The notes under the pieces were generated by a model that did no database searches, was not told the origin of the DNA, and saw nothing but the letters and a program-made list of their open reading frames with translations. Shown here piece by piece: positions 2,955-38,458 of a stretch of DNA of 64,000 nucleotides. Source of the stretch: a virus. Its lineage: Duplodnaviria > Caudoviricetes. The stretch is from positions 48,507 to 112,506 of the IMG/VR virus record IMGVR_UViG_3300031994_000039. One strand, 5' to 3'. The position numbers were made by a program, and so were the translations under genes. Position 1 is the stretch's first letter. Each line of letters begins with the position of its first letter.

Positions 2955-3228
2955 GATAATTTCTCTCCTTCCTGAATGCAGCGTAGTCATTTTCCCATTG
3001 CTGCCGGATCATTTTCTTTCGCTTCGCTGTATCTCTTTCCATCTTTTCTCTCTGTTCTTTTCTGTTGTCAAGTATTACCCACACGCAAACAATTACGAAC
3101 ATGGATATATAAATTGTTTTAAAAATAATAGAGCAAACTATATTTAAACTAGGTGTGGTTGCATCTGTTATCATAAACGCTGTTGATAAGATAATTCCAA
3201 ATATCCCAGAATAACCTTTCATTTTCAC
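2947..3228 (-). CDS. small membrane protein (2 predicted TM helices)
   Basis: Two hydrophobic stretches followed by a basic tail. Confidence 0.6.
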   Translation of the reverse strand: MKMKGYSGIFGIILSTAFMITDATTPSLNIVCSIIFKTIYISMFVIVCVWVILDNRKEQREKMERDTAKRKKMIRQQWENDYAAFRKERNYHG

Positions 3229-3749
3229 ATTACCTCTTGTTTTGTTTTTACTTCATAATTTTTGCATTTTCTCTTTAACTTAAATGGTTCTTCATCACGT
3301 CTAAGAACAAAGCGTCTGTCGCTAAATCGTTTTGCGCGTTCCTGCCCTTTAAGGAATATACACTCGTGATGCATACCAATCTCTGTCCTATCAGTCTTAT
3401 AATATTTACAGGTGAGACATTTGTATTGCTTGCAGAGTTCCTTATATTCAGCGTCGCACTCATCTTTAAAGCTACGCTCTACCATTTCCTTAGTCCATTC
3501 CGGAAGTATAAGCCATCTCCAGACTGGTAAGCCGTTGTAGATATCCTGAGTAAACCGTTCATAAACATCCTCTTTCGTCAGACACTCAAAGTAGTCAGTC
3601 GCAAACCTAAATGATTCAAGATATGCCGAAATTTCCTCGTAGTTAATTTCATACTGACCGCCGATCTCTGTGTCTGCAAAAATCCTAAGGATATCAACAA
3701 TAGCAGAGCAAGCCATTGCCTGTTTTGGGTTCATCATATTCCTCCTCAA
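3225..3749 (-). CDS. hypothetical Cys-rich protein directly downstream of RT
   Basis: 174 aa, CxxC (CLTC) plus further Cys/His; candidate RT partner by position only. Confidence 0.65.
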   Translation of the reverse strand: MRRNMMNPKQAMACSAIVDILRIFADTEIGGQYEINYEEISAYLESFRFATDYFECLTKEDVYERFTQDIYNGLPVWRWLILPEWTKEMVERSFKDECDAEYKELCKQYKCLTCKYYKTDRTEIGMHHECIFLKGQERAKRFSDRRFVLRRDEEPFKLKRKCKNYEVKTKQEVM

Positions 3750-3767
3750 GCCATGAATGGTATCACC

Positions 3768-4934
3768 TTATAAAGTTTTCAAGTCATTCTTAATTGACTC
3801 AGCTATATTCAAGCCGACCTTCTGACTCATCTTGTCAACTATTTTCTGAATGGCTTCCTTTTCGACCATCGAGAAGTAATTACGATACCCTTCGAGCACT
3901 TGAATGTCATTCAACGACCAGTCCTTTCCGTTCTTTTTGTCCATGCCGTATGAATACAACATTGCGGTGAACTTTTTCTTGTTCTTATATCCGACTGTAA
4001 TCTGATTGTCCTTATTAAGCATTACGCCAAGATTCCAGTTTGAACCTGCAGAAGAACCATACCTTGTCTTCTTTCTATTAAGCTCGAACGGAGCTCCGAA
4101 TTCCTGAAGAACCTTTACTATTTCGTCCTCAATCATCTTGTAACTGAAGTCTATCTTACATGATATGATGAAGTCATCCGCATATCTTGTATACACAAAC
4201 TTCCTGTTATCATAATCCCTGAACATATTAAACAGCTTGTAGTCAATTGGGATCATCATGATGTTTGTTATTAGTGGGCTGATCGGAGTTCCTTGAGGAA
4301 GCCCGCCGTTTAAGAACGCAAGGCTGATTGCCTGCTCGAAATATTTCTTTCCTTCCGGAACCGCAAGAACTCTGGAAAACGGAAAAATCATACTGAACAT
4401 CTTTGTCACGAATTCCGGAGTTGTGCTTCCAAAGAAGTTATGAAGGTCGAACTTTGCAAACCACTTACTTTCATTACCCTGATGTCTCTTTACTGCATCC
4501 AGTGTGCTTCTGCCTTTTATATATGCAAATGCTGATGTATGATACATCGCACCAAATCCATCCTCGAAGATGAACTTAAGTTCCCGAAGCGCCTCCATAA
4601 GTCTCGGCTTAGGTGCATCGATTCTACGAAGGCCGCCGGATCTCTTCGGAATGTGGAATGATCTATAAAGTTCCGCTCTATCCACTTCAAAGAGATCCTT
4701 GTACTTCTCGTTAAAGCACCACAATTCATTAATGAGTGACTGAATATTCAAACTGCCGAATATCTTTTCAGCATTTCTGGATAAGTATGTTCGTGTGTTT
4801 GTATTCCTGCCGTCCTTGCGTGTATAGTTTTTATATCTTTCGTTCCATTCATTATCTGGTAACGAAAAGAAATCGTCCAGAGATAGCTGAACTGTTTTCT
4901 TATTAAGAACAACTACTACATACTCATTGTACAT
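3768..4934 (-). CDS. retron-type reverse transcriptase (388 aa)
   Basis: Start MYNEY at 4934 behind AGGAGG; motifs IPKRSGGLRRIDAP, AFAY, DAVKRH (NAxxH-like retron region X), FDLHNFFGS, GLPQGTPISP, YTRYADD, WNLGV (region Y, VTG-like); no fused maturase or nuclease domain. Confidence 0.92.
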   Translation of the reverse strand: MYNEYVVVVLNKKTVQLSLDDFFSLPDNEWNERYKNYTRKDGRNTNTRTYLSRNAEKIFGSLNIQSLINELWCFNEKYKDLFEVDRAELYRSFHIPKRSGGLRRIDAPKPRLMEALRELKFIFEDGFGAMYHTSAFAYIKGRSTLDAVKRHQGNESKWFAKFDLHNFFGSTTPEFVTKMFSMIFPFSRVLAVPEGKKYFEQAISLAFLNGGLPQGTPISPLITNIMMIPIDYKLFNMFRDYDNRKFVYTRYADDFIISCKIDFSYKMIEDEIVKVLQEFGAPFELNRKKTRYGSSAGSNWNLGVMLNKDNQITVGYKNKKKFTAMLYSYGMDKKNGKDWSLNDIQVLEGYRNYFSMVEKEAIQKIVDKMSQKVGLNIAESIKNDLKTL

Positions 4935-4953
4935 AGAGTTTCCTCCTTTCAAA

Positions 4954-5145
4954 TTAATTGTCAACCTCCACGACAATCTTATTATTGTCCAGAGAGAAGA
5001 AGACCACGGCGTGATCGAGGAAATCCTCAACCCGCTGTGGACTTTCGTTCTTTGTGCTTTCAATTATAACTTCCTGACTGCCTGCAGAAACCAGTGTGAA
5101 GTCTATGCTCAGTGCAGCCTTACTGTAAAAATCCCCAAATTTCAT
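4954..5145 (-). CDS. hypothetical 63-aa protein immediately upstream of RT
   Basis: ORF with GAGG RBS, co-directional. Confidence 0.6.
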   Translation of the reverse strand: MKFGDFYSKAALSIDFTLVSAGSQEVIIESTKNESPQRVEDFLDHAVVFFSLDNNKIVVEVDN

Positions 5146-5166
5146 TTTTCCTAGTCCTCTTTATTT

Positions 5167-6078
5167 TTAGCAATTAACCGTCGTAAATTCTTTCGTGTCT
5201 TTATTGAAGAAGAATATCTCTCCAGAAAGAGTATCCGCTGGTCCGAATATTCTATTTGTTTCCGTTACATTACGCTTAATGCTCGTCGGATCGATGCTTC
5301 CAACCTTGTGAACCATAGCCTCGTGTATACTTGTGAACGCTACGTAGAAGCTATCGCCGTACATTTCTGCAAGCTTTTCCTTAACTCCCGGACAGAACAT
5401 TGCGATCGCTCCGTTTGTTTTCCTGCTGGTTGTGACGAGCGTGACTCTGTTGTTACTAAGTCTTTCCTTGCTTTCGAGAACTTTCTTTCCGCTTCCGTCA
5501 GTTATGTTAAACATGTCTGTGTAGAACATTGGAACCTGATTCTTTACTGTGTTCTCCATTGCAGCCGCGAAGATATCCAAATCCTTCATACCTGTCTGCT
5601 TCTTATATCCTTCGACACATCTCATCGGAACCTTTATTGTGTTCAAGATTCCGTCGCAGTCACTCATAATAAGGTAAAGAACCAGCGCAATATCACCCTT
5701 CTTGCAGTACATGCAAGGTTCTTTTGCATTCTTCTGGATAAATTCCGCACTATAATTCACAGGTCTGATGATTAATTCGTCCTTAATCTTAGTGTAGTCT
5801 TCTATTCTGTCGATCTTATTCATGAATCCACCAGCCCTTTTTCTGATGCTTGTCAAAGCCTCGCCAGTTGCCCTAAGGACAATGTCCCATCCTCTTTCGT
5901 TTACTGACTTCTGTGTATCTGCCAGTCTTACTGCCATTGATACCTCATCGCCGTTCAGTTTTATTCTTGCAACCTCTACATCATTTACACATTCAACGAG
6001 GAATTCCTCATTTGCCTGGATAAGATTGTATTCTTCCATTTTTTCTTTTAATACCTTTGCAAATTCTTTGTTAGTCAT
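5167..6078 (-). CDS. DUF5688-like protein
   Basis: Start MTNKEF behind GGAGG; motifs LIIRPVN, GDIALV, VTTSRKTNGAIAMF, FTSIHEAMV, LSGEIFFF resemble this Firmicutes family. Confidence 0.65.
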   Translation of the reverse strand: MTNKEFAKVLKEKMEEYNLIQANEEFLVECVNDVEVARIKLNGDEVSMAVRLADTQKSVNERGWDIVLRATGEALTSIRKRAGGFMNKIDRIEDYTKIKDELIIRPVNYSAEFIQKNAKEPCMYCKKGDIALVLYLIMSDCDGILNTIKVPMRCVEGYKKQTGMKDLDIFAAAMENTVKNQVPMFYTDMFNITDGSGKKVLESKERLSNNRVTLVTTSRKTNGAIAMFCPGVKEKLAEMYGDSFYVAFTSIHEAMVHKVGSIDPTSIKRNVTETNRIFGPADTLSGEIFFFNKDTKEFTTVNC

Positions 6079-6118
6079 AATCAAAACCTCCAAGTTTAAT
6101 TATCTTACTACCATTGTT

Positions 6119-6398
6119 CGTGTAACCTGATTACCTTTCAGGATCTCAGGGCAGCGGGCGCTGGTGCCACCGGCGCGCGTCAAAGCGATCTTTTATTTGT
6201 TCCTTTGCGGAACAAAAGAACGAAGGTCCACGTATTTGCGTGCTTCCTGAGATCTGTTTCTCTAATCAGGGCGGCTCCAGATCCGGAGATGGCGACTTGA
6301 GTTGTCGCCTCTCCTCCTCCTTCGCCTTATCATGTCGAGCCTTTTAATTACATCAAAAGGTTATTTCATATTGGATATAAAATAATATGCGTTACACA
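6119..6398 (-). ncRNA. retron-like msr-msd ncRNA, copy 1
   Basis: Ends UGUGUAAC(G)...GUUACACG (a1/a2); candidate branch G at 6390; msr stem-loops; msd (+ strand 6126-6270) stems CCTGATTA/TAATCAGG and GATCTCAGG/CCTGAGATC enclosing 3 hairpins. Confidence 0.8.
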
Positions 6399-6436
6399 TT
6401 TTCATGTATTAATAAAAGATAGCGTGATACATAAAT

Positions 6437-6511
6437 TACATAAACAATACCGCCGCAAAAATCCCGCAAACCACGTAGCTATCAGGTTTGCGGGGGATAG
6501 TTTTTTCCAAC
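6437..6511 (-). promoter_or_regulatory. candidate phage-RNAP promoter element (copy A) upstream of ncRNA 1
   Basis: Ungapped match to 25003-25077: GTTGGAAAwAACTA, central hairpin with TAnnTRCGTG, TTTATGTA at identical offsets. Confidence 0.5.
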
Positions 6512-6551
6512 TTTCTTGCGGAGTTATGTTTTATTACGTTTTGTCGCTCGC

Positions 6552-7214
6552 TTAAAAAGCGTCGATTTCAAAGCTCTTCAGATCAACTAAAACCATCTTC
6601 TTAATTCCTTCGCCCTTTACGAAGTGTATGAAGTTGGTTACTGCGATTGACGATACCACTCTAACAACAGGGCACACGCCCAGTGTAATGCCGCAAGCTG
6701 ATGTGGGAGTTTCTGCCTTCGCTTCTTCATGGCTGAACTGCATTGTAGCCAGAAGATTTTCCCTCATGCTTTTATCTGACCAGTCAGCAGCGTAATGCTG
6801 TGCGTGCTCTAACAAAGTTCTTATGTCGAACACTGCTTTAACCATCGGATTAAGCATATGTTTTTCACAGATTTCTCTGCGGATCTCGATACTGTCTACG
6901 CAAAGGAAGACATATCCTGCAAGAGTTTCACCGTTCCAACCCTTCTTTGTTTTGATCTCGATGTCCGGATTGATGTTCTGGAGAATACCCTTGAGAGCTT
7001 CTGTCTTTTCCTTGCCGACATCTTCTTTCGTGAACATCTGGTTCACGATATTATGTTCCTCTACCTTATCAAAATCCCAGAGAACCATTGACTTTACGCC
7101 ACAGCGGGCGAGGTTTTCTGCGATTGTTGAACCGACAGATCCACATCCGATGATGTGGATGTTGCCGTTTACATTGCTTGGGTTGAAGTATTCGAGTGAT
7201 TTTGATAAATTCAT
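6552..7214 (-). CDS. ThiF/E1-like ubiquitin-like activating enzyme
   Basis: IIGCGSVGS nucleotide-binding loop, DFDKVEEHNIVNQ, CVDS, DIR, candidate catalytic Cys in TSACG; start MNLSK at 7214. Confidence 0.88.
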   Translation of the reverse strand: MNLSKSLEYFNPSNVNGNIHIIGCGSVGSTIAENLARCGVKSMVLWDFDKVEEHNIVNQMFTKEDVGKEKTEALKGILQNINPDIEIKTKKGWNGETLAGYVFLCVDSIEIRREICEKHMLNPMVKAVFDIRTLLEHAQHYAADWSDKSMRENLLATMQFSHEEAKAETPTSACGITLGVCPVVRVVSSIAVTNFIHFVKGEGIKKMVLVDLKSFEIDAF

Positions 7215-7215
7215 A

Positions 7216-7827
7216 TTAACACGCCTCCACAAATAATTCTTCAAGGTTCACCTTTTCTTCTTCAGGTTCTTCTTTGATCTGGACTTCCGTTGTACAGTAC
7301 TCTTCAAATGCCTTCATGAGTTCTTCGGCAAATTCACTTTCCTGTTCTTCTGTAAGAGCTGGTGTCTCAGGTTCAGGTTCCTCTTCCGGAATCTCATAAT
7401 TGTCAACAATTTCATGGATGATGTCCATTATATCTGTTGCTGCTTCCCCTTCTGCGGCAGGTTCTTCTTCCTCCTCAGGGTCATCCTCTTCTTCGGGTTC
7501 ATCTTCCCATTCCTGGTTGTTGTCCATATATGATTTGAGATCGTCTTTATAATCATTGAACTGCCCGTCGTTGTCGTCTGTTCCTCTCCACGTTCCGTCG
7601 TAGTCGTCGTGTATATATCTGTCATACCTGTCACTTGGTATATCATCAACCAAGCTTCTTAAATCTGACAGAGAGTCGCAGTACTTTGCGTCATCGAGAA
7701 TTCTGCTTTCAAATTCGCCGTGCGTATATAAACCGCCTGTGAAAACATCATTAAAATAATCATAATCCCTTGCGCATTGTTCCAGTTCATCATAGGTGGT
7801 GATATCTTCAAACTCTGTTCGTGTCAT
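7216..7827 (-). CDS. highly acidic protein
   Basis: 203 aa, very D/E-rich (DEPEEEDDPEEEEEP), inside the E1/JAB cluster. Confidence 0.75.
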   Translation of the reverse strand: MTRTEFEDITTYDELEQCARDYDYFNDVFTGGLYTHGEFESRILDDAKYCDSLSDLRSLVDDIPSDRYDRYIHDDYDGTWRGTDDNDGQFNDYKDDLKSYMDNNQEWEDEPEEEDDPEEEEEPAAEGEAATDIMDIIHEIVDNYEIPEEEPEPETPALTEEQESEFAEELMKAFEEYCTTEVQIKEEPEEEKVNLEELFVEAC

Positions 7828-7846
7828 ATTTCAGACCCTCCTTACC

Positions 7847-8656
7847 TTACCATCCGCAACCAAATCTTTCGCTCAGCCACGCTTCGTATTCCTCATCTGT
7901 CATGCCAGCGTAGTAGTCACTATATTTTGATTTCTTACCGCCTTTGCCTTTGCCGATAGTCTTTGTGTCGGCTAAGGTACCCTTCAGATTGTAAATCTGT
8001 GTACCTGTGTATCTTGGGAAGTATTCATCAACCACGAGTTCCTTCGCTTTTTCTGCGAACTCCAGGATTTCCTCTTCGACATCGACGAATACCGTAACAT
8101 CATTGTCTTCATAGACTGTGTTACTCTGTTTATCGTAAATGTTTACGTATACGTCTCCTTTTTTATTTGTAACCAAGAAGATATAGAAGTCGTCGTCTCT
8201 GAGCTGATCAACGATTCCTCCGTAATAGGTTTCGTCTACGCTTGAAGGAGTTACGCCCATGTTTACATGGCTGTGCCCCTGCATTCTTAAGTTCTGAAAA
8301 ACCTCGTCTGGCTGTTCGTAGAGCCACATCTGATACTTTTCCTGATCCGTAGTGACAGTTGAACCTGTTACCTTCTGCGGGTAAACTACTATGTCGTCGA
8401 TGACATAATCGCCGTCCTTTACCTTTCTGGCGATGCCGTGCCATGCAACCTCTTTATCAAACTTATCAACCAGTGCTCTCATTTTCTTATCGGCAAGCTG
8501 ACTGATTTCCAGTGAAGCTTTTTTGCCGGTATTCAGTGTGAGTTTCTTGCTGTAGTTGACTGTGTTATTCTTGAAGACTCCGGCTGCGAGAAATTTTAAA
8601 AATTCCTCACGGATCTTTTCAATTTCTGTCTGATCTATATTAAATGCACGACTCAT
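7847..8656 (-). CDS. JAB/JAMM (MPN+) metallopeptidase, deubiquitinase-like
   Basis: Full JAMM motif: E in DKEVAWHG and H-S-H-x7-S-x2-D (HSHVNMGVTPSSVD); start MSRAF at 8656. Confidence 0.88.
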   Translation of the reverse strand: MSRAFNIDQTEIEKIREEFLKFLAAGVFKNNTVNYSKKLTLNTGKKASLEISQLADKKMRALVDKFDKEVAWHGIARKVKDGDYVIDDIVVYPQKVTGSTVTTDQEKYQMWLYEQPDEVFQNLRMQGHSHVNMGVTPSSVDETYYGGIVDQLRDDDFYIFLVTNKKGDVYVNIYDKQSNTVYEDNDVTVFVDVEEEILEFAEKAKELVVDEYFPRYTGTQIYNLKGTLADTKTIGKGKGGKKSKYSDYYAGMTDEEYEAWLSERFGCGW

Positions 8657-8660
8657 ATGA

Positions 8661-10064
8661 TTAACCTTCCTTTCTAAGTTCCTCAAGAACTTCATTGAGT
8701 GTGTAGCTGTTTCCGTTTAATTCAAAAGCTCTCTTGTTTGTTCTTGTTATGCGAGTTGTAAACTCTTCCATAACGGTGCTGTCTGCGAAGTTCAATGAAC
8801 GAACTGACATTCCGCAGAGACTGAGACACTGGATTGTATCGCCCGCCTTGAGCGCATCGACCATCATCATTTCATAGTCACCTAAACAGTGGTAACGGTC
8901 GATATGTGTATTCGGGAAGTAATCCTGAACTTCTGGAATGTAGCTTGCGTCTGCTATTCCAGTCACTCTGAACTCGCTTATCTTTATTCTGTAAGCTGCA
9001 ACACTCTTGAGCTTCACACTATGTTCTACGAAGATCGCATTGAAGAGTTTTTCTGTGTCCTCTCTGCTGATGTTTGAATAATCGTAAATAATACTATCGT
9101 AATTATCTACAAATTCCTCAGCTGTATCCGAATCAAATACATCAAGATATCCAGTAGCAAAAAACTCGATTGAGTCGCCGCTGCATGAATTGAATACGAG
9201 ATTTTTATTTGCCTTGAAGAAGTCGAGAATTTCGTTACTTTCATTCTTCACAACATTTCTTAATCCATCAATAATGATGTTCTTATCTCTTATCTTTATG
9301 AGCAGATTCGAAATTTCCTCACGCTTCATAGCTATCGTCTGTTCCAGTGATGAGATTTCGTTCTTGTGATATTCTAACTTATTCTTTGCAAAGCGAGTCT
9401 CAATTCCTGAAAGTGCTGCTTCCATTTTCCTTTCCCGGATGCCCTTGATAGCTGCGATGTTTGCGATTGCCTTTAAGAAAGGTTCTACGTTAGTCTTGCT
9501 GAGAGTTTCAAGGAACTCTGTTTCCTCTTTGGTGATAGGCTTTTCCTTGAAGAACCACGGCAGATATACCGGAGTTCCCATTAATACATAACGTTCTGTT
9601 TCAAGAGACATATTTTCTATCGGCTTATAGATTACGATTGTCCGCTTGCCGCATGTGAAACATGTTACCTCAGTTCTGCTAAAGAACTTTCTAACCTTCG
9701 CAGTTTCAACCCATTCCGGGCTCTTTTCCTTAACTCCCTCGCTGAGTTCGTCAAACCACTTTGTATCCGATCTCTTTACAGATATCAGCCATAAATCCTC
9801 ATCACACTTTTCTGTGTCGAATGTGAGTAATCTGTTGTGTAATTCATCGTATGATGAATCATACATGCCAGCGTTTCTGGTTATTTCGTTATACCTGATT
9901 TTGAATGGCGCGTCGTCTTCGACCCTGTCGATTAATAACGCTCTTACAACCATATTGAATACTACGTCTGTACTATAATTCCATTCGATCTTATAGATCT
10001 TCTTATCATCTTCGTCTTCGTTGTAACTGAAGGCAGTTGATGCTGGGATTCTTCCGTTGAACAT
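8661..10064 (-). CDS. coiled-coil protein with putative C-terminal E2/UBC-like domain
   Basis: Central heptad coiled coil; C-terminal FPNTHIDRYHCLGDY resembles the prokaryotic E2 PxxH...CLG active site; lies between Ubl and JAB. Confidence 0.6.
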   Translation of the reverse strand: MFNGRIPASTAFSYNEDEDDKKIYKIEWNYSTDVVFNMVVRALLIDRVEDDAPFKIRYNEITRNAGMYDSSYDELHNRLLTFDTEKCDEDLWLISVKRSDTKWFDELSEGVKEKSPEWVETAKVRKFFSRTEVTCFTCGKRTIVIYKPIENMSLETERYVLMGTPVYLPWFFKEKPITKEETEFLETLSKTNVEPFLKAIANIAAIKGIRERKMEAALSGIETRFAKNKLEYHKNEISSLEQTIAMKREEISNLLIKIRDKNIIIDGLRNVVKNESNEILDFFKANKNLVFNSCSGDSIEFFATGYLDVFDSDTAEEFVDNYDSIIYDYSNISREDTEKLFNAIFVEHSVKLKSVAAYRIKISEFRVTGIADASYIPEVQDYFPNTHIDRYHCLGDYEMMMVDALKAGDTIQCLSLCGMSVRSLNFADSTVMEEFTTRITRTNKRAFELNGNSYTLNEVLEELRKEG

Positions 10065-10124
10065 TTAAAAATTCCTCCTTAGAAAGATTGGCGGGGTGTT
10101 GTGTTCCCCGCCTTTTGGTTTTGG

Positions 10125-10437
10125 TTTGTGTAACCTAATTAGAAGTTGATCCTGATGAAGGATGAGTTCTGGGCTACTCAACCAGGTGAACTTCTATTAC
10201 GATGACCTTTTTCCTGATCTGCGGGCTGCGCAATCTTGGGGCTTCCTGAACATATTTCTGCTTGGATGTTGATTGAGCTTTTAATTTTTTTTTTTAGTAT
10301 GTTTTAATCAGATAAAACAGTACCCAGCTCGTGTCCAGATACCTCCTTCCGGCGGAGGTGCCTCCTTTCCCTTAACAATGCGATCCATTCACTGACAGTA
10401 AATGGTTGTTTTAAAAAAACAAAATGCGTTACACAAA
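10125..10437 (-). ncRNA. retron-like msr-msd ncRNA, copy 2
   Basis: 10-bp a1/a2 TTTGTGTAAC/GTTACACAAA; candidate branch G at 10427; same msr layout as copy 1; msd stem TAGAAGTT/AACTTCTA enclosing 2 hairpins. Confidence 0.8.
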
Positions 10438-10466
10438 AATCAAATACTAGTTTTATTCAGCAGAAA

Positions 10467-10694
10467 TTAAGCGTTGTCTGCTTTAACCACCTGTAAGAGG
10501 TAGCATTTATCAGTAACGCCGTAGTCTGCAAAGGTCTTATTGAAATCCGCACTGCCTACGACGCTGCCGTTGAGTGTGATTCCGCCTGCGGCAACATTGA
10601 GATTTGCCTGTTCTGCGGCTTCGAGAATTGTAGTGCTTGGGTCAAGAACTAATTCTGTTTTATTGAGTGATGTTCCGCTTATTACCTTAATCAT
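10467..10694 (-). CDS. ubiquitin-like (beta-grasp) protein B, 75 aa
   Basis: KTFADYGV resembles ubiquitin RTLSDYNI; ends VVKADNA; AGGAGG RBS. Confidence 0.8.
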   Translation of the reverse strand: MIKVISGTSLNKTELVLDPSTTILEAAEQANLNVAAGGITLNGSVVGSADFNKTFADYGVTDKCYLLQVVKADNA

Positions 10695-10778
10695 GGTTAA
10701 ATTCCTCCTTAATTTACAGGGGCGAGGCAAATGCCCAGCCCCGACTTACCTGTTATTTATGAATTGTGAAGAATGTTA

Positions 10779-11159
10779 TCACATAATTGTGATGCTATCC
10801 ATTGCTGTGCTGAGTGCGTTCTTGGCAGCTTCGATCTTTTCCGGAGCAGTTGCCTCGAATGCGTTCATTTTAGCAAGAGCCTTGCCATACTTTTCAGCAA
10901 TGAACCCCTTGATCTTATCCGGTTCAAGATCGCCGACAGAAACTGAAGTGCTTGCGTAGCCGCTTGCATCAGTCTTATCGAAGGTGATTCCGTATGTTCC
11001 GATTGAGCCTGTGGTTCCTGTTGCAACCTTAAAATCAATTTCCTTTTCCTCGTTCTTAACGACGAGTGCTTCAGGTGTTACTGTTGCAAGTGTTTCGAGA
11101 TCTGCTGTGAGAATTGTGCTTGTGAAAACTGCGATGCCTGAGATTACTGTTACCTTCAT
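10779..11159 (-). CDS. 126-aa hypothetical protein, paralog B
   Basis: Tandem paralog of 11245-11625 (shared GTYGITFDKTDASG, KYGKA). Confidence 0.85.
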   Translation of the reverse strand: MKVTVISGIAVFTSTILTADLETLATVTPEALVVKNEEKEIDFKVATGTTGSIGTYGITFDKTDASGYASTSVSVGDLEPDKIKGFIAEKYGKALAKMNAFEATAPEKIEAAKNALSTAMDSITIM

Positions 11160-11244
11160 TTAGATTTCCTCCTTAAAATTACAGGGGCGAGATTAAGAAA
11201 CCCCGCCCCACTTACGTGAATGAATGTTTGTTTCCGCTGAGCGA

Positions 11245-11625
11245 TTACATAATTGTGATGTTGTTCATTGCTGTTTCAAGAGCTGACTTAGCAAGTGCGA
11301 TACGCTCTGGTGCAACCTCTTCAAAAGAGTTCATCTTTGCGATTGCCTTGCCATATTTAGTGGCAATGAATTCCTTCACCTTGTCTGCCGGAATGTTACC
11401 GATTTCAACAGATGTTGAAGCGAAGCCGCTTGCGTCTGTCTTGTCGAAGGTGATTCCGTAGGTACCAACTGAGCCCTTTGAGCCTGTGTCAACCACAAAC
11501 TCAATTTCTTTTTCTTCGTTCTTGGCGATGAGCACTTCCGGAGTTACCTTCTTGAGTGTTTCCAGATCAGACATGAGAACTGCACTTGTGAAAACCGCGA
11601 TTCCGCTGATTACAGTAATTTTCAT
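11245..11625 (-). CDS. 126-aa hypothetical protein, paralog A
   Basis: Tandem paralog of 10779-11159; AGGAGG RBS. Confidence 0.85.
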   Translation of the reverse strand: MKITVISGIAVFTSAVLMSDLETLKKVTPEVLIAKNEEKEIEFVVDTGSKGSVGTYGITFDKTDASGFASTSVEIGNIPADKVKEFIATKYGKAIAKMNSFEEVAPERIALAKSALETAMNNITIM

Positions 11626-11788
11626 TTTAAATTCCTCCTAGAATTTTCTTACTTGTGTTTTGAGAGATGTGAAATTGTGTGTCTATTATGTTAAACTCCT
11701 AAACGGTTGGGTTGAATTCCGCAAGCCCGAAATTGGGGGCGATAACCGTTCCGCTTAGGAGGTAACATCAGATTGTTTTTCCAGTAGC

Positions 11789-12016
11789 TTAAGCGTTGTC
11801 TGCCTTAACTACCTGGAGTAAGTAACATTTATCTGTTACTCCGTAGTCGTTGAAAGTCTTGTTGAAATCCCCACCGGAAACCATTGAGCCGTTGAGTGTG
11901 ATTCCGCCCGCAGGAACGTTGAGTCCTGCCTGCTCTGCAGCTTCCATGAGTGTTGTTGATGGGTCGATAACGAGTTCTGTCTTGTTGAGTGATGTTCCTG
12001 AGATTACCTTGATCAT
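11789..12016 (-). CDS. ubiquitin-like (beta-grasp) protein A, 75 aa
   Basis: 65/75 identical to 10467-10694; ends VVKADNA. Confidence 0.8.
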   Translation of the reverse strand: MIKVISGTSLNKTELVIDPSTTLMEAAEQAGLNVPAGGITLNGSMVSGGDFNKTFNDYGVTDKCYLLQVVKADNA

Positions 12017-12086
12017 TTGAAATTCCTCCTAAGTTTTTCGTTTAAATTCTTACTAATTCTTACTGGAACTTTTAATTCCTTACTTA

Positions 12087-12115
12087 ACTATATCACAGCG
12101 TTGTCTGTTTGTCAA
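12087..12115 (-). promoter_or_regulatory. sigmaA/70 promoter heading the Ubl-E2-JAB-E1-RT cluster
   Basis: TTGACA-17 bp-TATAGT with extended -10 TG. Confidence 0.8.
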
Positions 12116-21100: not shown

Positions 21101-24100
21101 GTGGTTACTATTAGCAAGCAGTTGACATGTCAGAAGTACATTCTGAAGATTAACAGCTCAAGGCTTCGCAGAGAGAAGTGGAATCTTAACGTCTCACTTG
21201 ACGAAGCCAGGAACAATGACGAGATCATCTCACTGGCGGACAGTCAGATGCTCAGGTGGATCGACGAGCTGAATGGAGTAACGGACGCTGACAGAAAGGC
21301 AAAGTCAATCAAAAAGCAGATAAGGGAACTGCGTAAGTGCGAACCGTCTTTACAAATACGCCGTGAAATGCGCAGGCTCTATTCTGATCTGGATGCACTT
21401 CAGTTTAAACCGGACTATCTTTGTTTAATTATAGACAAAGGTAAAGATTATCTGCGAGCAGTAAAGGGATTTAAAGTAAACGGAATAAAGTATAAACGTT
21501 TGCTTGGAACTACTGGTGGTATTAAGAACTCCACCATAGTGTTTGTCTCGGAAAGGCTCTCGGACGAGCTGCACAGGCGTATCAACAACGGTAGGGATAT
21601 GACCAAGGCTATGGTGCCCGCCAAGCTGAATGCATACATGGCGCTGACCTGTAGTGCTTCAGTTCCGGTATCACTACCGAAAGGGATCCTGGTTGTGGAT
21701 GATGTAGAGACTGAGTTCCTCTCAGATATCATTTATCTCTCCAGTCAGGATGAGGGCGAACCGGTGATGGAATACAAGAAGGATTATCTTATGAAGCTTG
21801 ATGCCACTGACGGCTTCGGACTGATGCTTCCCTCTCTGGCACAGAGGTGGAGTGAGGAGATAGGTCTTGACTATACGGCAAGCGGTATGTGCTGTAGGTA
21901 CAGCTTTACTAAGGGTATGGTTTTTACGTTTGACTTTCTGGACTTTGCTGATAAGGTCGCAGGCGGCAAATATCTTGTCAAGGACGTATGGGGCAACGAG
22001 GTGGATATCAGGAATGTAGAACTGATACTGACCACATCTATGTTAAAGTTATGGGACAGCTATCCAAGCTGTGAGGAGTTTATCAGATTATCTGAGGAGA
22101 ATCACTATACATTCGCTATAACCAAAGCGTGCCCGGAGGTACTTGAGGATGAACGATGTTTAAACTATCAGTTTGTACAGCCATTTAACCTCGATGAGGA
22201 TGATATACAGGAACTTATCTCCCCTACCCTTAACGAGATATGGGATGTGCTGCAAGGCGACTGGCGGCGTGCTCTCGTATTCCTCAGAGGCGTAGGTATG
22301 ACGGAAGAAAACATTGGCCGCTCAGCTGATGATATCGCTAAGGCTATAATGGCGGACCAGAGAGTGTTCGATGATCCATATGTCCAGAATAGTATTTATC
22401 AGCTTATCAGGAACAGAATTAACGCTGCGAAGATAGGCGTGCTCAAGGTTCACGCAAATTATTCGATTGTATCTGGAGATCCATATATTCTGTGCCAGAA
22501 AGTATTTGGTCTGGAGGAAACCGGATTACTTAAGGCCGGGGAGATATATAATCAGTATTGGGCTGATAACAGCTCTGATGAAGTAGTGTGCTTCAGAGCC
22601 CCGATGTCTTGTCATGAAAATATAAGGAAAATGAAAGTTTGTAAGTCCGATGAGGTTCGGTACTGGTATCAGTATATGAAGACCTGCACAATACTTAATG
22701 CGTGGGATGAAACAATGCCCTCATTAAATGGATTAGACTTCGACGGAGATCTCACGTTTATAACAGATAACGAAGTTCTACTCCGCAGACATGAAAAGCT
22801 TCCGGCTATTGTTTGTATCCAGAAGAAGGCAGAAAAGAAAATAGCTTCGGAAGAAGACTTCGTTGTATCTGATATGAATGCTTTCGGTAATGATATTGGC
22901 AGTATTACAAACAGAACTACTTCAATGTATGAGGTTAGGTATAACTATGAAAAAGGAAGCAGAGAATATGAAGAGCTTACATACCGCATAAGGTGTGGTC
23001 AGCTCCTACAACAGGATTATCAATTATCGACTAGTCCGCTTGTACAGAAATGTGCTTGAAAAACGACTCATTGAATTGCTGGAATCCCTTAAAGCTTACA
23101 GTGCTACAACGGAGGAGCGAACAGTTCCAAACGTGAATGCGGCGAAAGCAGAAAGAAACTGTAAGATGGTATATGGTTAAATCCTAAGTATTAAGCAATA
23201 GGCAATCTAGCAGCTAAGTTCCGAACAGGAGAAAGTTCAACGACTAACTCTTATGAGTGTAGGGATACAAGCTATTGGTATTTCGAAGTGGTGGGCATCC
23301 TTAGGGATGATGATATAGTCTTCTCTCAGTCGAAATGGCTGAGGACGAAAGTCGGCAAGGAGTAGCGTCCTATTATAACTTAAATAGTTTAGCCAAAAGG
23401 AAAGGGCAATTGATAAAGCAAAGGGTATTATATCTCTTCCGGCTCCGAGAGAGTGGTACGATCGTCATGCGGTAGCTAAGATCGAAGATGATGAGAAGCG
23501 TGATTTCTACCGCACGATCATCGCAGACAAAAAGCCAATGTTCATGACCTACATCTACCCTTCTCTGGCGAGAGATTATAAGGACTTTCTATCCAGTACA
23601 AACAAGAACGCGTTGAGAGAGTTTGGTATGACAGTAGGAGAACTTAAAGAAAAGAGATATGATGAACTCACACCGAGACAGATTGAGTTCCTGCATTATT
23701 ACGATAAGATGATGCCGGTTGGCTTAAATGACTGTGTAATGAACAGAATCTGCAGAATCTTCGAGAGAGAGTTTGATGACTTCATCAAGAACAAGTCCGG
23801 TACAAATGCTGAATTTGATCCGGAGATCCTGAAGAGTGGCATAACTTATACTGACAAGGATTATAAGGCCGTTAGGAATCTGCATAATGATTATCTTAAC
23901 AGACTCAAGAATTATAAAACCAGAGCGTGCTATGAGCGTGTTGATGGTGATGAATTCAATGAACAGCTCGACAGAATCAAAGCTGAGTTTGAGGAAGAAT
24001 GTGACAAGGTTTGTCCGTGTAGAAGAACACTCACAGACATCCTTATTGATATTTGTTATTCAAACGCATCCACCAAGAGATATATCTGGAGCTCATGCGG

Positions 24101-25329: not shown

Positions 25330-26364
25330 ATGATTATAATGCCGAGGAAAACACAGATGAATGAAATCACCTCCCCGGAACTTATAAGTCAGATCCTTCC
25401 GGAGAACAGAATATTACTGAAAGATTTCATGGATTATCTTCGCTCGATTCAGAGGAGCGAAACAACTATTGCCGCCTACGAGAACGATATACAGATTGCG
25501 TTCGTGTGGAATTTAAAGTTTAACGGCAATAAGGAATTTTATAACTGGACAAAGAGAAATGTGGTAGCGTATCAGAATTGGCTGTTAAATAATAACGGCA
25601 ACTCCCCAGCCAGAGTAAGAAGGCTTAAAGCTTCACTTTCTTCTTTAAGTAACTATATCGAGAATGTTCTTGATGACGAATACCCAGGATTCAGGAATAT
25701 TATCAATAAGGTCGAGAGTCCGGTAATAACTCCAGTAAGAGAAAAGACTGTCTTCACGGAGGAACAAATTGAAACTCTGCTGAATACTCTTACTGAAAAG
25801 AAGAAGTATGATAAGGCTTGTGCGGTTGCACTTGCTTTATATTCTGGAAGAAGAAAATCAGAACTGTTAAGATTTAAGGTTTCTGATTTTGATGACAGTC
25901 ATTTAACATGCGGCGGATCCTTATACAGAAGCGATCCGATTAAAACTAAAGGCAGGGGTGCTCAGGGTAAGATGCTTGAGTGTTATACACTTGCCAAACA
26001 ATTTAAACCATACCTTGACAACTGGATGAGATACAGAGAAGAAAACAATATTCATAGCGAATGGTTGTTCCCTGATTCAGAGCAGCCAGGGCTGACGATG
26101 ACTATAGTAACGCTCAATAGTTGGGCTGAAGTATTTTCACGAATGATGGGTATAGACTTCTACTGGCACGCATTACGTCATATGACGGTTACAAACTTCA
26201 AGCGTGCAGGAATACCTGACTCTGTTATTCAGTCTTACATAGGCTGGTCCGACCTCTCGATGGTGTCGGTATATTCAGACCTCAAGGCTGATGAACAGCT
26301 CGGTATGTATTTCACTGAGAATGGTATGGTAGCACCGAAGGCTAAAGGCCTCGATGAAATTTAA
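25330..26364 (+). CDS. tyrosine recombinase/integrase
   Basis: SGRRKSEL, KTKG, HALRH, IGW, catalytic Y in SVY. Confidence 0.9.
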   Translation: MIIMPRKTQMNEITSPELISQILPENRILLKDFMDYLRSIQRSETTIAAYENDIQIAFVWNLKFNGNKEFYNWTKRNVVAYQNWLLNNNGNSPARVRRLKASLSSLSNYIENVLDDEYPGFRNIINKVESPVITPVREKTVFTEEQIETLLNTLTEKKKYDKACAVALALYSGRRKSELLRFKVSDFDDSHLTCGGSLYRSDPIKTKGRGAQGKMLECYTLAKQFKPYLDNWMRYREENNIHSEWLFPDSEQPGLTMTIVTLNSWAEVFSRMMGIDFYWHALRHMTVTNFKRAGIPDSVIQSYIGWSDLSMVSVYSDLKADEQLGMYFTENGMVAPKAKGLDEI

Positions 26365-27965: not shown

Positions 27966-30244
27966 GCGTGAAGCTATCATGGAGGGAGCTGCCTACTGGG
28001 GCAGCTTCTATCGTCACAATATTGATAAATTCGTTGAGGATTACTTACACATAAGGCTCAAACGATTCCAGAGAGTTATTTTAAGCATGATGGTTTACGT
28101 CACTGTATTTGTACTGATAGCTTGCCGTGGTTTAGGTAAGACATATCTCAGTGGCGTGTATTGTTGTGTTCGCTGTATCCTGTGGCCCGGCACGAAAATA
28201 TGCATAGCCTCAGGAACACGTAACCAGGCAGGCGCAGTTCTTGAAAAGATAATGCTCGAACTGGTTCCGAATTCTCCAGAACTTAGAAACGAGATTGATT
28301 ACAAACAAACAAAGATCAATGGTACTCAGGCTCAGATAGTTTTTAAAAACACAAGCGTTATTAAGGTTGTTACAGCGAGCGATAGTTCTCGTGGTAATAG
28401 ATGTAACGTTTTACTTTTGGATGAATTTAGATTAATTCACAAAGATATAATTGACACAATCCTCAGAAAGTTCTTAACACTTAGGCGTATGCCAAGATAC
28501 GAAGAGCTTACCGAAGTAGAGCGAAGAGCTGAGTATGACAAGGAAAAGAACTTGACACTCTATATGAGTTCTGCATATTTTAAGGACCATTGGTCATACC
28601 AAAAATGTGTTGATACATTTAAAGCTATGATGGATGATACACGCAGACAGTTCGTCTGTGGATTTCCATATCAGCTTTCAATTTCAGAAGGTTTACTTGA
28701 TGCTGAAGCGGTTGCGGATGAAATGTCTGAGTCTGACTTTAGCGAAGTAAAGTGGAGCATAAACATTTCTGTGCTCCTTAAACTCATTGAACTCATTAAC
28801 CTAATGAGGGTACTACAATGTAGTGCTAACAGGGAAACCCTAAGTGCATAAGCATATGGCAATCCTGTGCCAAGACATAATTATATGTAAGGTGCAACGA
28901 CCATCCTATATGGAGTACATCAGAGACAGGTACTGGTGGAAGCGGTGAGAACGAGTAGTCGTTATGATATGGTCTGATCTATTATGAAAGTAATAGCTAA
29001 CAAATAAATAGGAAATGGATGCGCTCTTCTACGGAAGTGGCGAAGACGCGTTCTTTGATTTCTCTTCTATTTCAAAGAACCGCAGAATAAAATACCCAAT
29101 GTTGCCGGAGAAACTTGCAAACAAGCTCGGCAACTCTAATCAGGTTAAGATACCTCAGAAGGCTCACGGTGAGGTAAGAATACTTTCTGCCGATATTGCG
29201 CTCATGTCGTCGAAGAAACATAATAACGACGCGACTGCGATATTTATTAATCAGATGAGTGCTACTAAAATTGGCAGGTATGTGAGCAACATTGTTTATG
29301 CAGACACATACGAAGGCCTGCGAACAAATGAACAAGCGTTAATAATACGCAAACTATATGAAGAGTATGATTGCGATTACATTGTACTTGATACTAACGG
29401 TAGACTGATGCCGCTTTGCATAGTAATATGCATTGAAAAAGTGAAGAATCAAGCGGGAAGGCTGAGATGCTAACCCGAACCGAAGGCTATTGGTAATACG
29501 ATAGTCAGGGGCAACGCATAGGTGTGAAACTAGTTATAGAATATAATCACCCACGAGGCTTCACCATCTGAACAATTCAGATGAAAAGATATGCTGAACT
29601 TGTAGGAAATCAACTACAAGAGCTATGAGATAAAAAGCTCATAGGATAACAATGACCTGATCGGTCTTGGTGTGTTCGATGAACTCGCCCACGATATTAT
29701 TGATGCAGACACTGGAGAAATCTACCCTGCCCTCTCTTGCTATAACGACAAGACGATGGCAGAAAGATGTACAGTACCCGGTGCCGACAAAGTTATATAT
29801 TCAGTTAAAGCTTCAGCGCAGTTCAACTCAGACTGCGCATTTTTATTGCGTGAAGCATTTAAGAGCGGTCGTGTTAGATTGCTTGCAACAGAATACGATG
29901 CTGACGAATATCTAATGGAAATAAAGGGTTATGCTTCCCTGTCACCATCAGAGAAGCTTTCGATAAAACTTCCTTATATTCATACCACACTGTTGATAGA
30001 CGAACTTACAAAACTGCAACACGAAACATCGGGCGGCAAGGTTCGTATCTTCGAGAAGCCGGGTATGCGTAAGGATAGATACTCATCATTATCATATAAC
30101 TACTACGTAGCTATTCAGATAGAAAACAAACTCAGCAAGAAGGCAAATAACAGTATAGAAGAAAGTTTCTTCGTTGTTAAACCTCCGAGCATTGGAAAGG
30201 CGGTGAACAGACACGGCACAAACAGAAAACAAACATTCTGGTAA
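27958..30244 (+). CDS. terL: terminase large subunit, split by two introns (~592 aa)
   Basis: Walker A CRGLGKT, Walker B LLLDE, nuclease ADIA, LDTNG|IGLG, RKDRYSS; exons 27958-28760, 29011-29401, 29660-30244 total 1779 nt in frame. Confidence 0.9.
28761..29010 (+). mobile_element. group I intron 1 in terL (250 nt), apparent omega-A
   Basis: P1 AGCAU/GUGCU; P10 CAUUUCU pairs exon GGAAAUG; P7 GACCA/UGGUC; splicing restores KWSMEMDAL. Confidence 0.85.
29402..29659 (+). mobile_element. group I intron 2 in terL (258 nt)
   Basis: P1 CGGU/GCCG; P10 AGACUGAU pairs AUCGGUCU; P7 GCAUA/UAUGC; terminal G. Confidence 0.88.
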
Positions 30245-36660: not shown

Positions 36661-38458
36661 ATGGGCGCATGGGATATATATGAAAGTCGTGCCTCAATTC
36701 ACGGCGAAACAAGAAGGTCTGCGGAGTTAATTAAAGAGTCCAGGAGACTCCTTAAGAAAACAAGAGAAAGCCTGTCGTATTTCAACGTACTTGTTGACGG
36801 AGTGGAACGTCAGGTTTGTATCATAGACTCTGACAACCTAAACGAGAAAAAAATGCTTTCGATGCCGGGTGAAGATTTCGACTGCGGCGGACTTGTTGAG
36901 TGGATGGATAACCATTGGCTTATCGAGGAGAAAGATGCTCATAATGAATTATATACTCGTGTTAAACTTCTTCAGTGTAACTACTTGCTTAAGTGGGTGG
37001 ACGAAGATGATGTTATTCACGAGCAGTATTGTGTGATTGAAGACGGAACGAAATTGAGAAATCAGTTTCCGTACAGCGTGAGCTGTATGTTAAAACATCT
37101 GTTTAATTGCTGGAACATCCTAAAGCAATATATACTACAGCATAGCAATGAAAGATATGCAGGTGCGAATGTTACGAAAGTAGAAAGAAATATATTGATG
37201 GCATAGGGTTAAATCCTAAGTGTTATGGAATGGATAATCAGCAGCCAAGCCTTGAACAGAGGAAGGTTCAACGATCATCCCTTTATGGGAGTAGGGTGAT
37301 AATCATCATTCGAAATAGCAGACATCCGGAAGGATGAAGATATGATCTGCTCTTTGTAGAAATACAAAGTAAGAATAATAAATTCTTATATTATGTCAAA
37401 TAAGGAGTTGTAAACATTGTCAACAAGATGTATAGACTTAACTGGTCAGAAATTTGGTAGACTAACAGTTATATCAAGAGGAGAAAATGATTCGCATGGT
37501 ACGGCTAGATGGCTATGCCTTTGTGAATGCGGAAACATAAAACTTATCAGAGGTGATAAGTTACGTCATAATGAAATAATGTCATGTGGTTGTTATCAGG
37601 CCGAATTAAGAAAGAGTACCGAACGCGCTGAGAATATTAGCAAAGCGAAGACAAGGCATGGCATGAGTAATACAAAATTGTATTATGTTTATAACAATAT
37701 GATTAGAAGATGTTATTCTCCTAATAACGAAAGGTATAATAACTATGGTGATAGAGGGATCATTGTTTGTAATGAATGGCGAAATAATATTGATAGCTTT
37801 TTTGAATGGGCTATTGCTACTGGTTATACTGATGGGCTTACCCTTGATAGAATAAATGTTAATGGTAATTATTGCCCGGAAAATTGCAGATGGGCATCTC
37901 AAAAGGTTCAAGCTAACAACAGAACGAGCAATGCATATATAACACATAACGGTGAGACTCATACAATAGCAGAATGGTCTGACATAACTGGATTATCCCC
38001 GAAATTATTATATCAAAGAAAACGTCTCGGATGGGACGATAGCAGAATATTAACAGAACCAGTGAGACATAATAAACATAGCTAAGGACTTAACCGGCGA
38101 GCTAGAAGATCGTACCTTCGTGACCACTCGTGGAGATGCGAGAATTGCATTACACATTGGTAAGAACGAAGATACTGCTAAGTTCAACAGGAACAGTCGT
38201 TTTATCGTAGACGATTTGATTTCTGGAACGAAGCTTGCTTTCCTTCTCACAAAACCGTTGAAAATCGGACACACATATAACGATAAAGGAATCTACCTTT
38301 TCGTACTTCAAGAAGTTGTTACAACAGATAACGACAATCTTGAACTTAATATTGCAGATTATTACAAACATTTTCCTAAGGAAGATACAGTTCCGGACTT
38401 CGACGATCCGGTTGACACAAGCCACACTACACCATCTGGAAAGGAGATATGGATCTGA
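36661..38458 (+). CDS. head-closure-like protein, intron-split (~254 aa)
   Basis: Exons 36661-37054 and 38088-38458 join as IEDGTK-Y-LTGELED. Confidence 0.75.
37055..38087 (+). mobile_element. group I intron carrying a homing endonuclease
   Basis: P1 GAAAU/GUUUC; AATTGCTGGAA, AATCAGCAG, GTTCAACGATCA, AAGATATGATC; terminal G. Confidence 0.9.
37417..38085 (+). CDS. intron-encoded HNH-type homing endonuclease
   Basis: DLTGQKFGRL, WLCLCECG, SCGC, TLDRINVNGNYCPENCRWA. Confidence 0.88.
   Translation: MSTRCIDLTGQKFGRLTVISRGENDSHGTARWLCLCECGNIKLIRGDKLRHNEIMSCGCYQAELRKSTERAENISKAKTRHGMSNTKLYYVYNNMIRRCYSPNNERYNNYGDRGIIVCNEWRNNIDSFFEWAIATGYTDGLTLDRINVNGNYCPENCRWASQKVQANNRTSNAYITHNGETHTIAEWSDITGLSPKLLYQRKRLGWDDSRILTEPVRHNKHS

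Follow-up and report, generated by a model that had tools for sequence, protein, structure and literature searches.

Strict co-inheritance of a retron with a predicted ubiquitin-like conjugation gene set in a phage lineage

IMG/VR virus record IMGVR_UViG_3300031994_000039, a 112.5-kb sequence of the Caudoviricetes rated 95% complete, contains a cluster in which a retron-type reverse transcriptase (RT) and two retron non-coding RNAs (ncRNAs) lie among genes for ubiquitin-like proteins (Ubl) and their apparent conjugation enzymes. We analyzed the right-hand 64 kb of the record (positions 48,507 to 112,506), which is called the window below. The minus strand carries the genes of the window from position 1 to about 17 kb, and the cluster reads, in the order of transcription from 12115 to 3225, UblA, XA, XB, UblB, ncRNA2, E2-like protein, JAB protease, acidic protein, E1, ncRNA1, DUF5688 protein, a 63-aa open reading frame (ORF), RT, and a Cys-rich 174-aa protein (Table 1). 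A preliminary description of this DNA, made from the letters alone, had listed these parts, and all of them were found at their positions and on the minus strand. It had also proposed that retron and Ubl machinery may form one system. A megablast search of the region against GenBank phages gave no match. In related uncultured loci we found that the two sets of genes are inherited together, and this co-inheritance, rather than the interleaving of ncRNAs with Ubl genes in the window, is the strong evidence for a link between them.

The preliminary description had named the co-occurrence of gene neighborhoods as the way to examine this link, and independent occurrence of the two modules in related genomes as the observation that would speak against it. 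Related loci (designated L with a number) were gathered in five ways: with the RT in IMG/VR, with the E2-like protein in protein collections, with the RT in protein collections, with E1 profiles in IMG/VR and metagenomes, and with the RT in GTDB genomes. Only distinct loci were counted, and an E1 locus had to extend at least 2.5 kb downstream and an RT locus at least 8 kb upstream. The RT followed the E1 in 155 of 157 E1 loci, and in the two exceptions (L010 and L011) the sequence ends inside cargo genes. In the opposite direction, E1, E2-like, and JAB genes accompanied 126 of the 127 RTs, the exception (L126) being an ordinary bacterial retron RT of 27% identity. The co-presence persists down to 48% identity of the RT and approximately 20-35% identity of the E2-like protein. 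When 49 non-redundant neighborhoods of 20 kb were compared, the E2-like, JAB, E1, and RT genes were each present in all 49 and X/Ubl in 48, and the next commonest families occurred in 40, 37, and 30 of them; no relative had a homologue of the window's own flanking genes. L105 has the ncRNA and the RT between JAB and E1, an internal rearrangement through which the linkage was kept.

The two sets of genes are also missing together. Five records of sister phages encode a YonO-like RNA polymerase with 41-48% identity to that of the window, and neither the RT nor a ThiF-type E1, both of which were sought in all five, was found in any of them, one being a complete 131.8-kb genome with terminal repeats. 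Positive controls for this absence behaved as expected, with RT and E1 both present in two complete genomes of the block-bearing clade. We also looked in the sister phages for conserved flanks between which the entire block had been cleanly inserted or deleted. The genes for HU and DNA ligase show no synteny with the block even where a genome contains it, and no boundary could therefore be defined; in other complete genomes these two genes are sited elsewhere, with the block staying together. The retron and the Ubl genes are thus together wherever a related locus was long enough for a judgment, were kept together through the rearrangement of L105, and are jointly absent from the sisters, so that their co-location is not a matter of chance, and the independent occurrence that would have spoken against the link was not found anywhere in the census.

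Table 1. Features of the cluster in the window, listed in the order of transcription
Feature	Position	Strand	Description or basis
Sigma-70-like promoter upstream of UblA	12087..12115	-	TTGACA, 17-nt spacer, TG, TATAGT; 11/12 positions match; strong-looking
UblA, 75 aa	11789..12016	-	Ubiquitin-like beta-grasp, ends ...VKADNA; Atlas model and alignment
XA, 126 aa	11245..11625	-	Conserved Ubl partner; predicted beta-sheet and 42-residue C-terminal helix
Terminator-like hairpin between XA and XB	11184..11209	-	Hairpin with T-rich tail
XB, 126 aa	10779..11159	-	XA paralogue; sequence comparison
UblB, 75 aa from ATG	10467..10694	-	UblA paralogue; TTG-extended ORF to 10730
ncRNA2 (msr-msd)	10125..10437 (approx.)	-	a1 10428-10437, conserved G 10427, a2 10125-10134
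G+C-rich hairpin after ncRNA2, before E2-like	10090..10112	-	GGCGGGG ... CCCCGCC; sequence reading
E2-like protein, 467 aa	8661..10064	-	N-terminal alpha/beta 1-200; long helix 221-273; C-terminal UBC/RWD-like 277-467
JAB/JAMM metalloprotease, 282 aa	7847..8695	-	Intact E...HSH...S..D; PADLOC JAB 6.8e-05
Acidic 203-aa protein, optional member	7216..7827	-	In about three quarters of relatives; sometimes relocated downstream of RT
Minimal E1, ThiF-type adenylating enzyme, ~220 aa	6552..7214 (longer form to 7244)	-	ThiF 2.4e-25
Terminator-like hairpin after E1	6456..6494	-	CCCGCAAACC ... GGTTTGCGGG, then ATTTTTG; sequence reading
ncRNA1 (msr-msd)	6117..6400 (approx.)	-	a1 6391-6398, conserved G 6390, a2 6119-6126
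DUF5688 protein, 308 aa	5167..6093	-	Pfam 7.7e-25; between ncRNA1 and RT
63-aa ORF	4954..5145	-	No homologue in any related locus
Retron-type RT, 388 aa, YADD	3768..4934	-	Pfam, PADLOC, and NCBIfam profiles
Cys-rich 174-aa protein	3225..3749	-	No homologue in any related locus

The RT starts at the ATG at 4934, which is preceded by a GGAGG ribosome-binding site, and a TTG-extended ORF reaches 5063. It matched Pfam RVT_1 (8.8e-18) and PADLOC RT_II-A (2.2e-46), the latter being followed by many other retron RT models, and an RYADD motif was invariant among its relatives; it is accordingly a retron-clade RT with the catalytic YxDD motif. Membership of retron type II-A (St85/Sen2) was rejected: the match to the NCBIfam retron St85 family (1.9e-50, 171.8 bits) is under the family cut-off of 235 bits, and none of the RT's neighbors matched a PADLOC effector model, be it a nucleoside deoxyribosyltransferase (NDT), a DNA-binding protein, or another classified effector. 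The latter result bears out the preliminary description, which had seen no classical retron effector beside the RT. No conserved small-residue end was found at the C-terminus of the RT. In some relatives an RNase H gene with Cauli_VI and RNase_H domains directly follows the RT and its downstream ncRNA (L013:11494-12129, L016:11515-12150, and L017:11515-12150), and it could mature the multicopy single-stranded DNA (msDNA) without a host enzyme.

Both ncRNAs have the anatomy of a retron msr-msd, namely a1/a2 inverted repeats, a conserved G, covarying msr hairpins, and msd parts that are unrelated to each other. They have a 5' scaffold in common, which is the part described by covariance model R1, and ncRNA1 (fold z-score -5.25) and ncRNA2, which was likewise folded, scored 61.7 bits and 63.2 bits (E 6.6e-11), respectively, with this model; no Rfam family covered either. 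Each is closed by a stem of 8-10 bp, one strand of which comes right before the conserved G and the other 264 or 293 nt farther downstream, with 8 contiguous a1/a2 pairs in ncRNA1 and 10 in ncRNA2 (TGTGTAAC has GTTACACG as its partner in ncRNA1 and GTTACACA in ncRNA2). A search with R1 found 222 copies in 89 sources, every one of them on the RT strand. RNAalifold on the first 16 msr copies gave only part of hairpin 2, and the structure was therefore supplied by hand and then supported by counts on independent copies: among 113 distinct copies, 90.5% of the cells in the two msr hairpins were paired, compared with 38-48% in slid controls, and compensatory, doubly changed cells numbered 407 as against 42-78. 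The G after a1, which is the putative priming or branching position, was conserved in 108 of the 113 copies, and in 88 of 108 copies a run of 8 or more contiguous a1/a2 pairs was present, a2 being located 174-442 nt downstream (the average for a shuffled a1 was 5.6). Relatives have the same scaffold with different closing stems, and the stems covary.

One RT is typically accompanied by several dispersed ncRNAs, usually 2-4 and up to about five per locus (L003-L125; for example L008:14065-14873, L015:9665-11534, L020, and L021), and the ncRNAs of one locus combine a common msr scaffold with different a1/a2 stems and unrelated msd parts. In the relatives they lie mostly in the gap between E1 and RT and just after the RT, and some lie several kb downstream. 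Judging from this anatomy, the RT would be expected to synthesize msDNA from these ncRNAs. Two further observations concern the ncRNAs of the window. A partial third msr-like element is present at 1160-1208 on the minus strand (R1 positions 19-61, E 0.015), and its hairpin 2 is nearer to the family consensus than those of ncRNA1 and ncRNA2; no convincing a1/a2 pair and no a2 partner was found for it. In addition, a 17-nt stretch of the ncRNA1 msd (6215-6231) is 94% complementary to 5037-5053, which lies inside the 63-aa ORF a short way upstream of where the RT starts; chance is estimated to give about 0.14 pairs of this kind in the region, and the pairing may mean nothing.

On the Ubl side, the enzymes look catalytically complete from their motifs. 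The E1 has an invariant GCGSVG nucleotide loop and an invariant Cys174, its matches in the PDB were UBA5, UBA1, MoeB, MccB, and Cap2, and its match to the PADLOC "E1-E2" models of Cap2 type (7e-20) was limited to the nucleotide-binding part. In the JAB protein, which also matched RPN11 with an E value of 0.024, the JAMM residues E82, H141, S142, H143, S151, and D154 were invariant in 31 relatives. The 467-aa protein is likely to be E2-like. In its AF2 model (pLDDT 88.7), the C-terminal domain has the predicted topology a1-b1-b2-b3-b4-(Asn-x-His...Cys)-a2-a3-a4, and N385, H387, and C393 (Asn-x-His-x5-Cys), which are invariant in the alignment, are modeled where E2 enzymes carry an Asn and the catalytic Cys. 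The best non-coiled-coil matches in the VIA-align search were RWD domains with middling Z scores (8adl_C, 7.5 over 90 aa; 4nf9_A, 6.3 over 88 aa; 8aaf_e, 6.2 over 77 aa). Sequence profiles gave no match outside the protein's own family, PDB profiles gave only coiled-coil noise, and Foldseek against the PDB gave nothing significant.

The Ubl proteins themselves were identified mainly by structure, as sequence profiles by themselves gave only weak hints. The Atlas model of UblA matched ThiS/MoaD (TM 0.69) and ubiquitin clusters (TM 0.62-0.70), and according to this model UblA is a beta-grasp Ubl of the kind that a Bil-type operon would contain; UblB is its paralogue with 76% nucleotide and 87% amino acid identity. 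Among 34 relatives the C-terminal KADNA hardly varies. What is conserved is an end of Asp-Asn-Ala, with Asp-Gly-Gly or Asp-Gly-Ala as rare alternatives, and either 0-4 extra residues or a fused X protein come after it. Natural Ubl-X fusions were found at L082:4702-5319 and 5431-6063, L086:6776-7393, L088:5941-6582, L089:7012-7620, L090:4945-5565, and L097:6462-7082, and in these X begins directly after the terminal Asn-Ala of Ubl; in L082 three X units alternate with three Ubl units in an array. Because of these direct fusions and the C-terminal extensions of 1-4 residues, the Ubl end looks like a site of precursor processing. The fusions and the array resemble ubiquitin fusion precursors. XA and XB share 70% nucleotide and 71% amino acid identity. 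The AF2 model of X has a pLDDT of 96.9, and neither sequence profiles against the PDB nor Foldseek (nothing significant) nor the Atlas feature search gave a usable match; since the best hit in a wide VIA-align search reached a Z of only 3.9, no fold could be assigned to X.

The remaining genes of the cluster are less constant. The DUF5688 protein was present in only 5 of about 96 sources, and, as neither the 63-aa ORF nor the Cys-rich protein has a homologue in the relatives, all three are lineage-specific cargo outside the conserved block rather than the conserved partners for which they might be taken in the window. The preliminary description had considered the DUF5688 or the Cys-rich protein as a possible effector of the retron, and this was rejected as a general explanation because their distribution is too narrow. 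Two strongly acidic protein families of about 180-200 aa accompany the block (for example L020:4531-5142 with its homologues, and window 7216-7827). The first is found immediately upstream of X in 40 of the 49 neighborhoods, and the second occurs in 37 of the 49, either between JAB and E1 or on the downstream side of the RT; they may be DNA mimics or targets of conjugation. The E2-like, X, Ubl, acidic, 63-aa, and Cys-rich proteins had no match in Pfam, PHROGs, PADLOC, or NCBIfam.

The carriers of the block are a large family of uncultured gut phages of about 100-150 kb, which are probably temperate. The temperate lifestyle is suggested by the integrase in the window (25330-26364) and by copies of the block deep within very long metagenome contigs (L197, VOFB01000498.1, 574,840 bp; L202, SCPN01001483.1, 1,518,968 bp), which suggest integrated prophages. 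The phage of the window also has an RdRP/YonO-type single-subunit RNA polymerase (21101-23059; Pfam PF05183, 6.7e-16), three group I introns (23008-23343, 28739-28996, and 37045-37369), and three tRNA genes (64-796) in addition to the integrase, which is of the tyrosine type.

We consider the chances about even that the block is one functional system, in which a retron, with an RT near St85/type II-A and one to several ncRNAs, has Ubl conjugation as its partner arm. In such a system the JAMM protease would trim the Ubl precursors, which are C-terminally extended or fused to X, to expose the terminal Ala, and the E1 would adenylate Ubl and hand it over via Cys174 to Cys393 of the E2-like protein. 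The RT-msDNA complex would be the sensing or regulatory arm that gates or directs conjugation, which would replace the usual retron effector, and the output would be the tagging of proteins of competing phages or of the host, in lysogeny or during infection. The gating step is proposed by analogy with retrons, in which RT-msDNA controls an effector, and with the type II cyclic-oligonucleotide-based antiphage signaling system (CBASS), in which E1/E2/JAB proteins control a nucleotidyltransferase. The role could be that of a prophage excluding other phages, or else counter-defense or host takeover.

Several observations weigh against a single system, and some of them speak for two independent modules, that is, a retron with a role of its own (for example, msDNAs as decoys against host defenses) and a Ubl set that are neighbors by descent in the same accessory or early region and are co-inherited by proximity only. 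First, all of the loci belong to one phage lineage, and the co-presence and the co-absence may each be a single evolutionary event. Second, the block consists of several transcription units rather than one operon, since hairpins follow XA, ncRNA2, and E1 (a similar one follows E1 in L013 and L016) and ncRNA1 may have its own promoter. Third, E1 and RT are separated by 0.1-6 kb of cargo that varies, none of the loci was seen to have the RT fused to a gene of the Ubl set, and the fold match of the E2-like protein is, as noted, middling. Fourth, the arrangement of the ncRNAs carries less meaning than it appears to in the window. The gap between Ubl and E2-like holds a retron ncRNA in the window and in L004, L006, L007, and L093, a tRNA-Leu(taa) in L003 (L003:3733-3818 by ARAGORN), and tRNA-like sequence in L008:9857-10000, L013:5750-5956, L015:5813-5981, L016:5794-5998, and L012. 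As tRNA-Leu is found there in several relatives, small RNA genes appear to settle in this gap regardless of their function, and most relatives have ncRNAs flanking the RT. The interleaving, to which the preliminary description had given weight, is thus a lineage-specific detail and not evidence in itself. The symmetry, with ncRNA, Ubl, and X each present twice, did not hold as a meaningful pattern either: L004, L006, and L007 have two ncRNAs in the same slots with one Ubl and one X, and L082 has three of each protein with one detected ncRNA, so that a matching of copy numbers was rejected; ncRNA counts do not track those of Ubl or X.

Against independence stands the behavior of the block over long divergence. 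Everything else around it turns over, and yet the six genes were not separated in any of about 155 distinct and deeply diverged loci; the linkage survives the rearrangement of L105, both arms are jointly missing in the sister phages, and the retron has no other conserved candidate effector. We regard two independent modules as the main rival explanation, serious but rather unlikely.

A different purpose for a coupled system also has to be weighed. The Ubl set might tag or inactivate host proteins or reverse host immunity that depends on E1/E2, as in type II CBASS or Bil, with the msDNAs as decoys or sponges for DNA-sensing defenses of the host, in a system for counter-defense or host takeover. 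Such a purpose would suit a block that is invariant in the phage lineage, unlike typical variable defense cargo, as well as the several ncRNAs of each RT with their different and fast-changing msd parts, the acidic and possibly DNA-mimic-like proteins that accompany the block, and the RNase H gene that stands beside the RT in some relatives as if to secure msDNA maturation. However, none of the proteins match a known anti-defense family, merely reversing host conjugation would need no self-contained set of Ubl, E1, and E2, and the window integrase and the copies in the 575-kb and 1.5-Mb contigs fit a prophage-borne defense equally well. A coupled system for counter-defense or takeover is, in our estimation, unlikely.

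It is quite improbable, though it would be of much interest, that the Ubl cascade uses the msDNA or the RT-msDNA complex itself as substrate, scaffold, or guide, which would amount to nucleic-acid-programmed protein tagging with several msd "programs" per phage; Ubl could, for example, be conjugated to the RT or to nucleic acid, or the msd sequences could steer the E2-like protein to its targets. Chance co-location in an accessory region, a caveat that the preliminary description had itself raised and for which nothing beyond the single window speaks, is refuted by the census, the invariance over 49 neighborhoods, and the joint absence from sister phages, and its probability is negligible.

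If the two arms do cooperate, as in the reading that we favor of a retron with a Ubl conjugation partner, the block would represent a new type of retron, one partnered by a cascade that tags proteins and not by a toxin, and self-contained Ubl conjugation would be fixed equipment of a phage lineage rather than of bacteria. With 2,508 clusters of the E2-like protein alone at 50% identity in public metagenomes, this would be an unexplained mechanism that is common in animal-gut viromes. A retron RT that naturally serves several different templates is of interest for retron-based DNA production, and a compact E1/E2/JAB/Ubl set would be useful for studying how ubiquitin-like tagging is controlled.

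The preliminary description knew of no retron-Ubl coupling, and we likewise found no description of a retron joined to E1, E2, JAB, or Ubl in literature searches on retrons together with ubiquitin-like, ThiF, or JAB proteins, on phage retrons, and on Bil/Bub systems; a metagenomic count of viral retron-like RTs exists, without a Ubl context (PMC13681634). Among retrons, the nearest RT family is type II-A (St85/Sen2) in the classification of Mestre et al. (2020; PMC7736814). The block resembles retrons in its retron-clade RT with YADD, in same-strand ncRNAs with a1/a2 repeats, a conserved G, a structured msr, and a variable msd, and in the accompanying set of non-RT genes. In contrast to type II-A, its conserved partners are Ubl, X, the E2-like protein, the JAMM protease, and E1, one RT goes with 2-5 dispersed ncRNAs, and the whole is fixed in a phage lineage.

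The Ubl arm resembles BilABCD, the bacterial ISG15-like operons in which ubiquitin-like conjugation serves defense (bioRxiv 10.1101/2023.09.04.556158; 10.1101/2023.09.26.559546), and shares with it the gene order Ubl, E2 (here E2-like), JAB, E1, a minimal E1 that lacks the ubiquitin-fold domain (UFD), a JAMM peptidase that trims residues past the conjugation end of Ubl, and conjugation through a Cys enzyme, the activities of the block being predicted from its motifs. Unlike BilABCD, the block is phage-encoded and always joined to a retron, its Ubl ends in a conserved Asn-Ala whereas the Bil Ubl has a universally conserved Gly, its E2-like protein has approximately 470-500 aa with an added N-terminal domain and a long helix, and it has the extra partner X, which is sometimes fused after Ubl. 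Membership of the Bil family was rejected on the absence of a universally conserved C-terminal Gly in Ubl and of any match to a Bil model; the E2-like, Ubl, and X proteins matched no Bil, Pfam, or PADLOC model.

Type II CBASS has comparable E1/E2/JAB machinery in Cap2 (E1-E2) and Cap3 (JAB), which is attached to, and regulates, an immune module based on a nucleotidyltransferase. There, however, it is the cyclase's own C-terminus that is conjugated as the "Ubl", and a single fused protein provides E1 and E2, while the block has a separate Ubl. The PRTRC cassette, or operon class 6d (Iyer, Burroughs and Aravind, 2006; PMC1779556), is similar in having a small E1, an E2-like protein, JAB, and Ubl on a mobile element, and RTs or retrons are unmentioned in that paper. 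The block is not a member of this class, as its E1 scored 31.4 bits against a cut-off of 144.75 for TIGR03736 and no other model of TIGR03735-03742 matched. Because it falls outside retron type II-A, Bil, and PRTRC alike, the block is best described as a new retron type combined with a phage-borne, Bil-like gene set.

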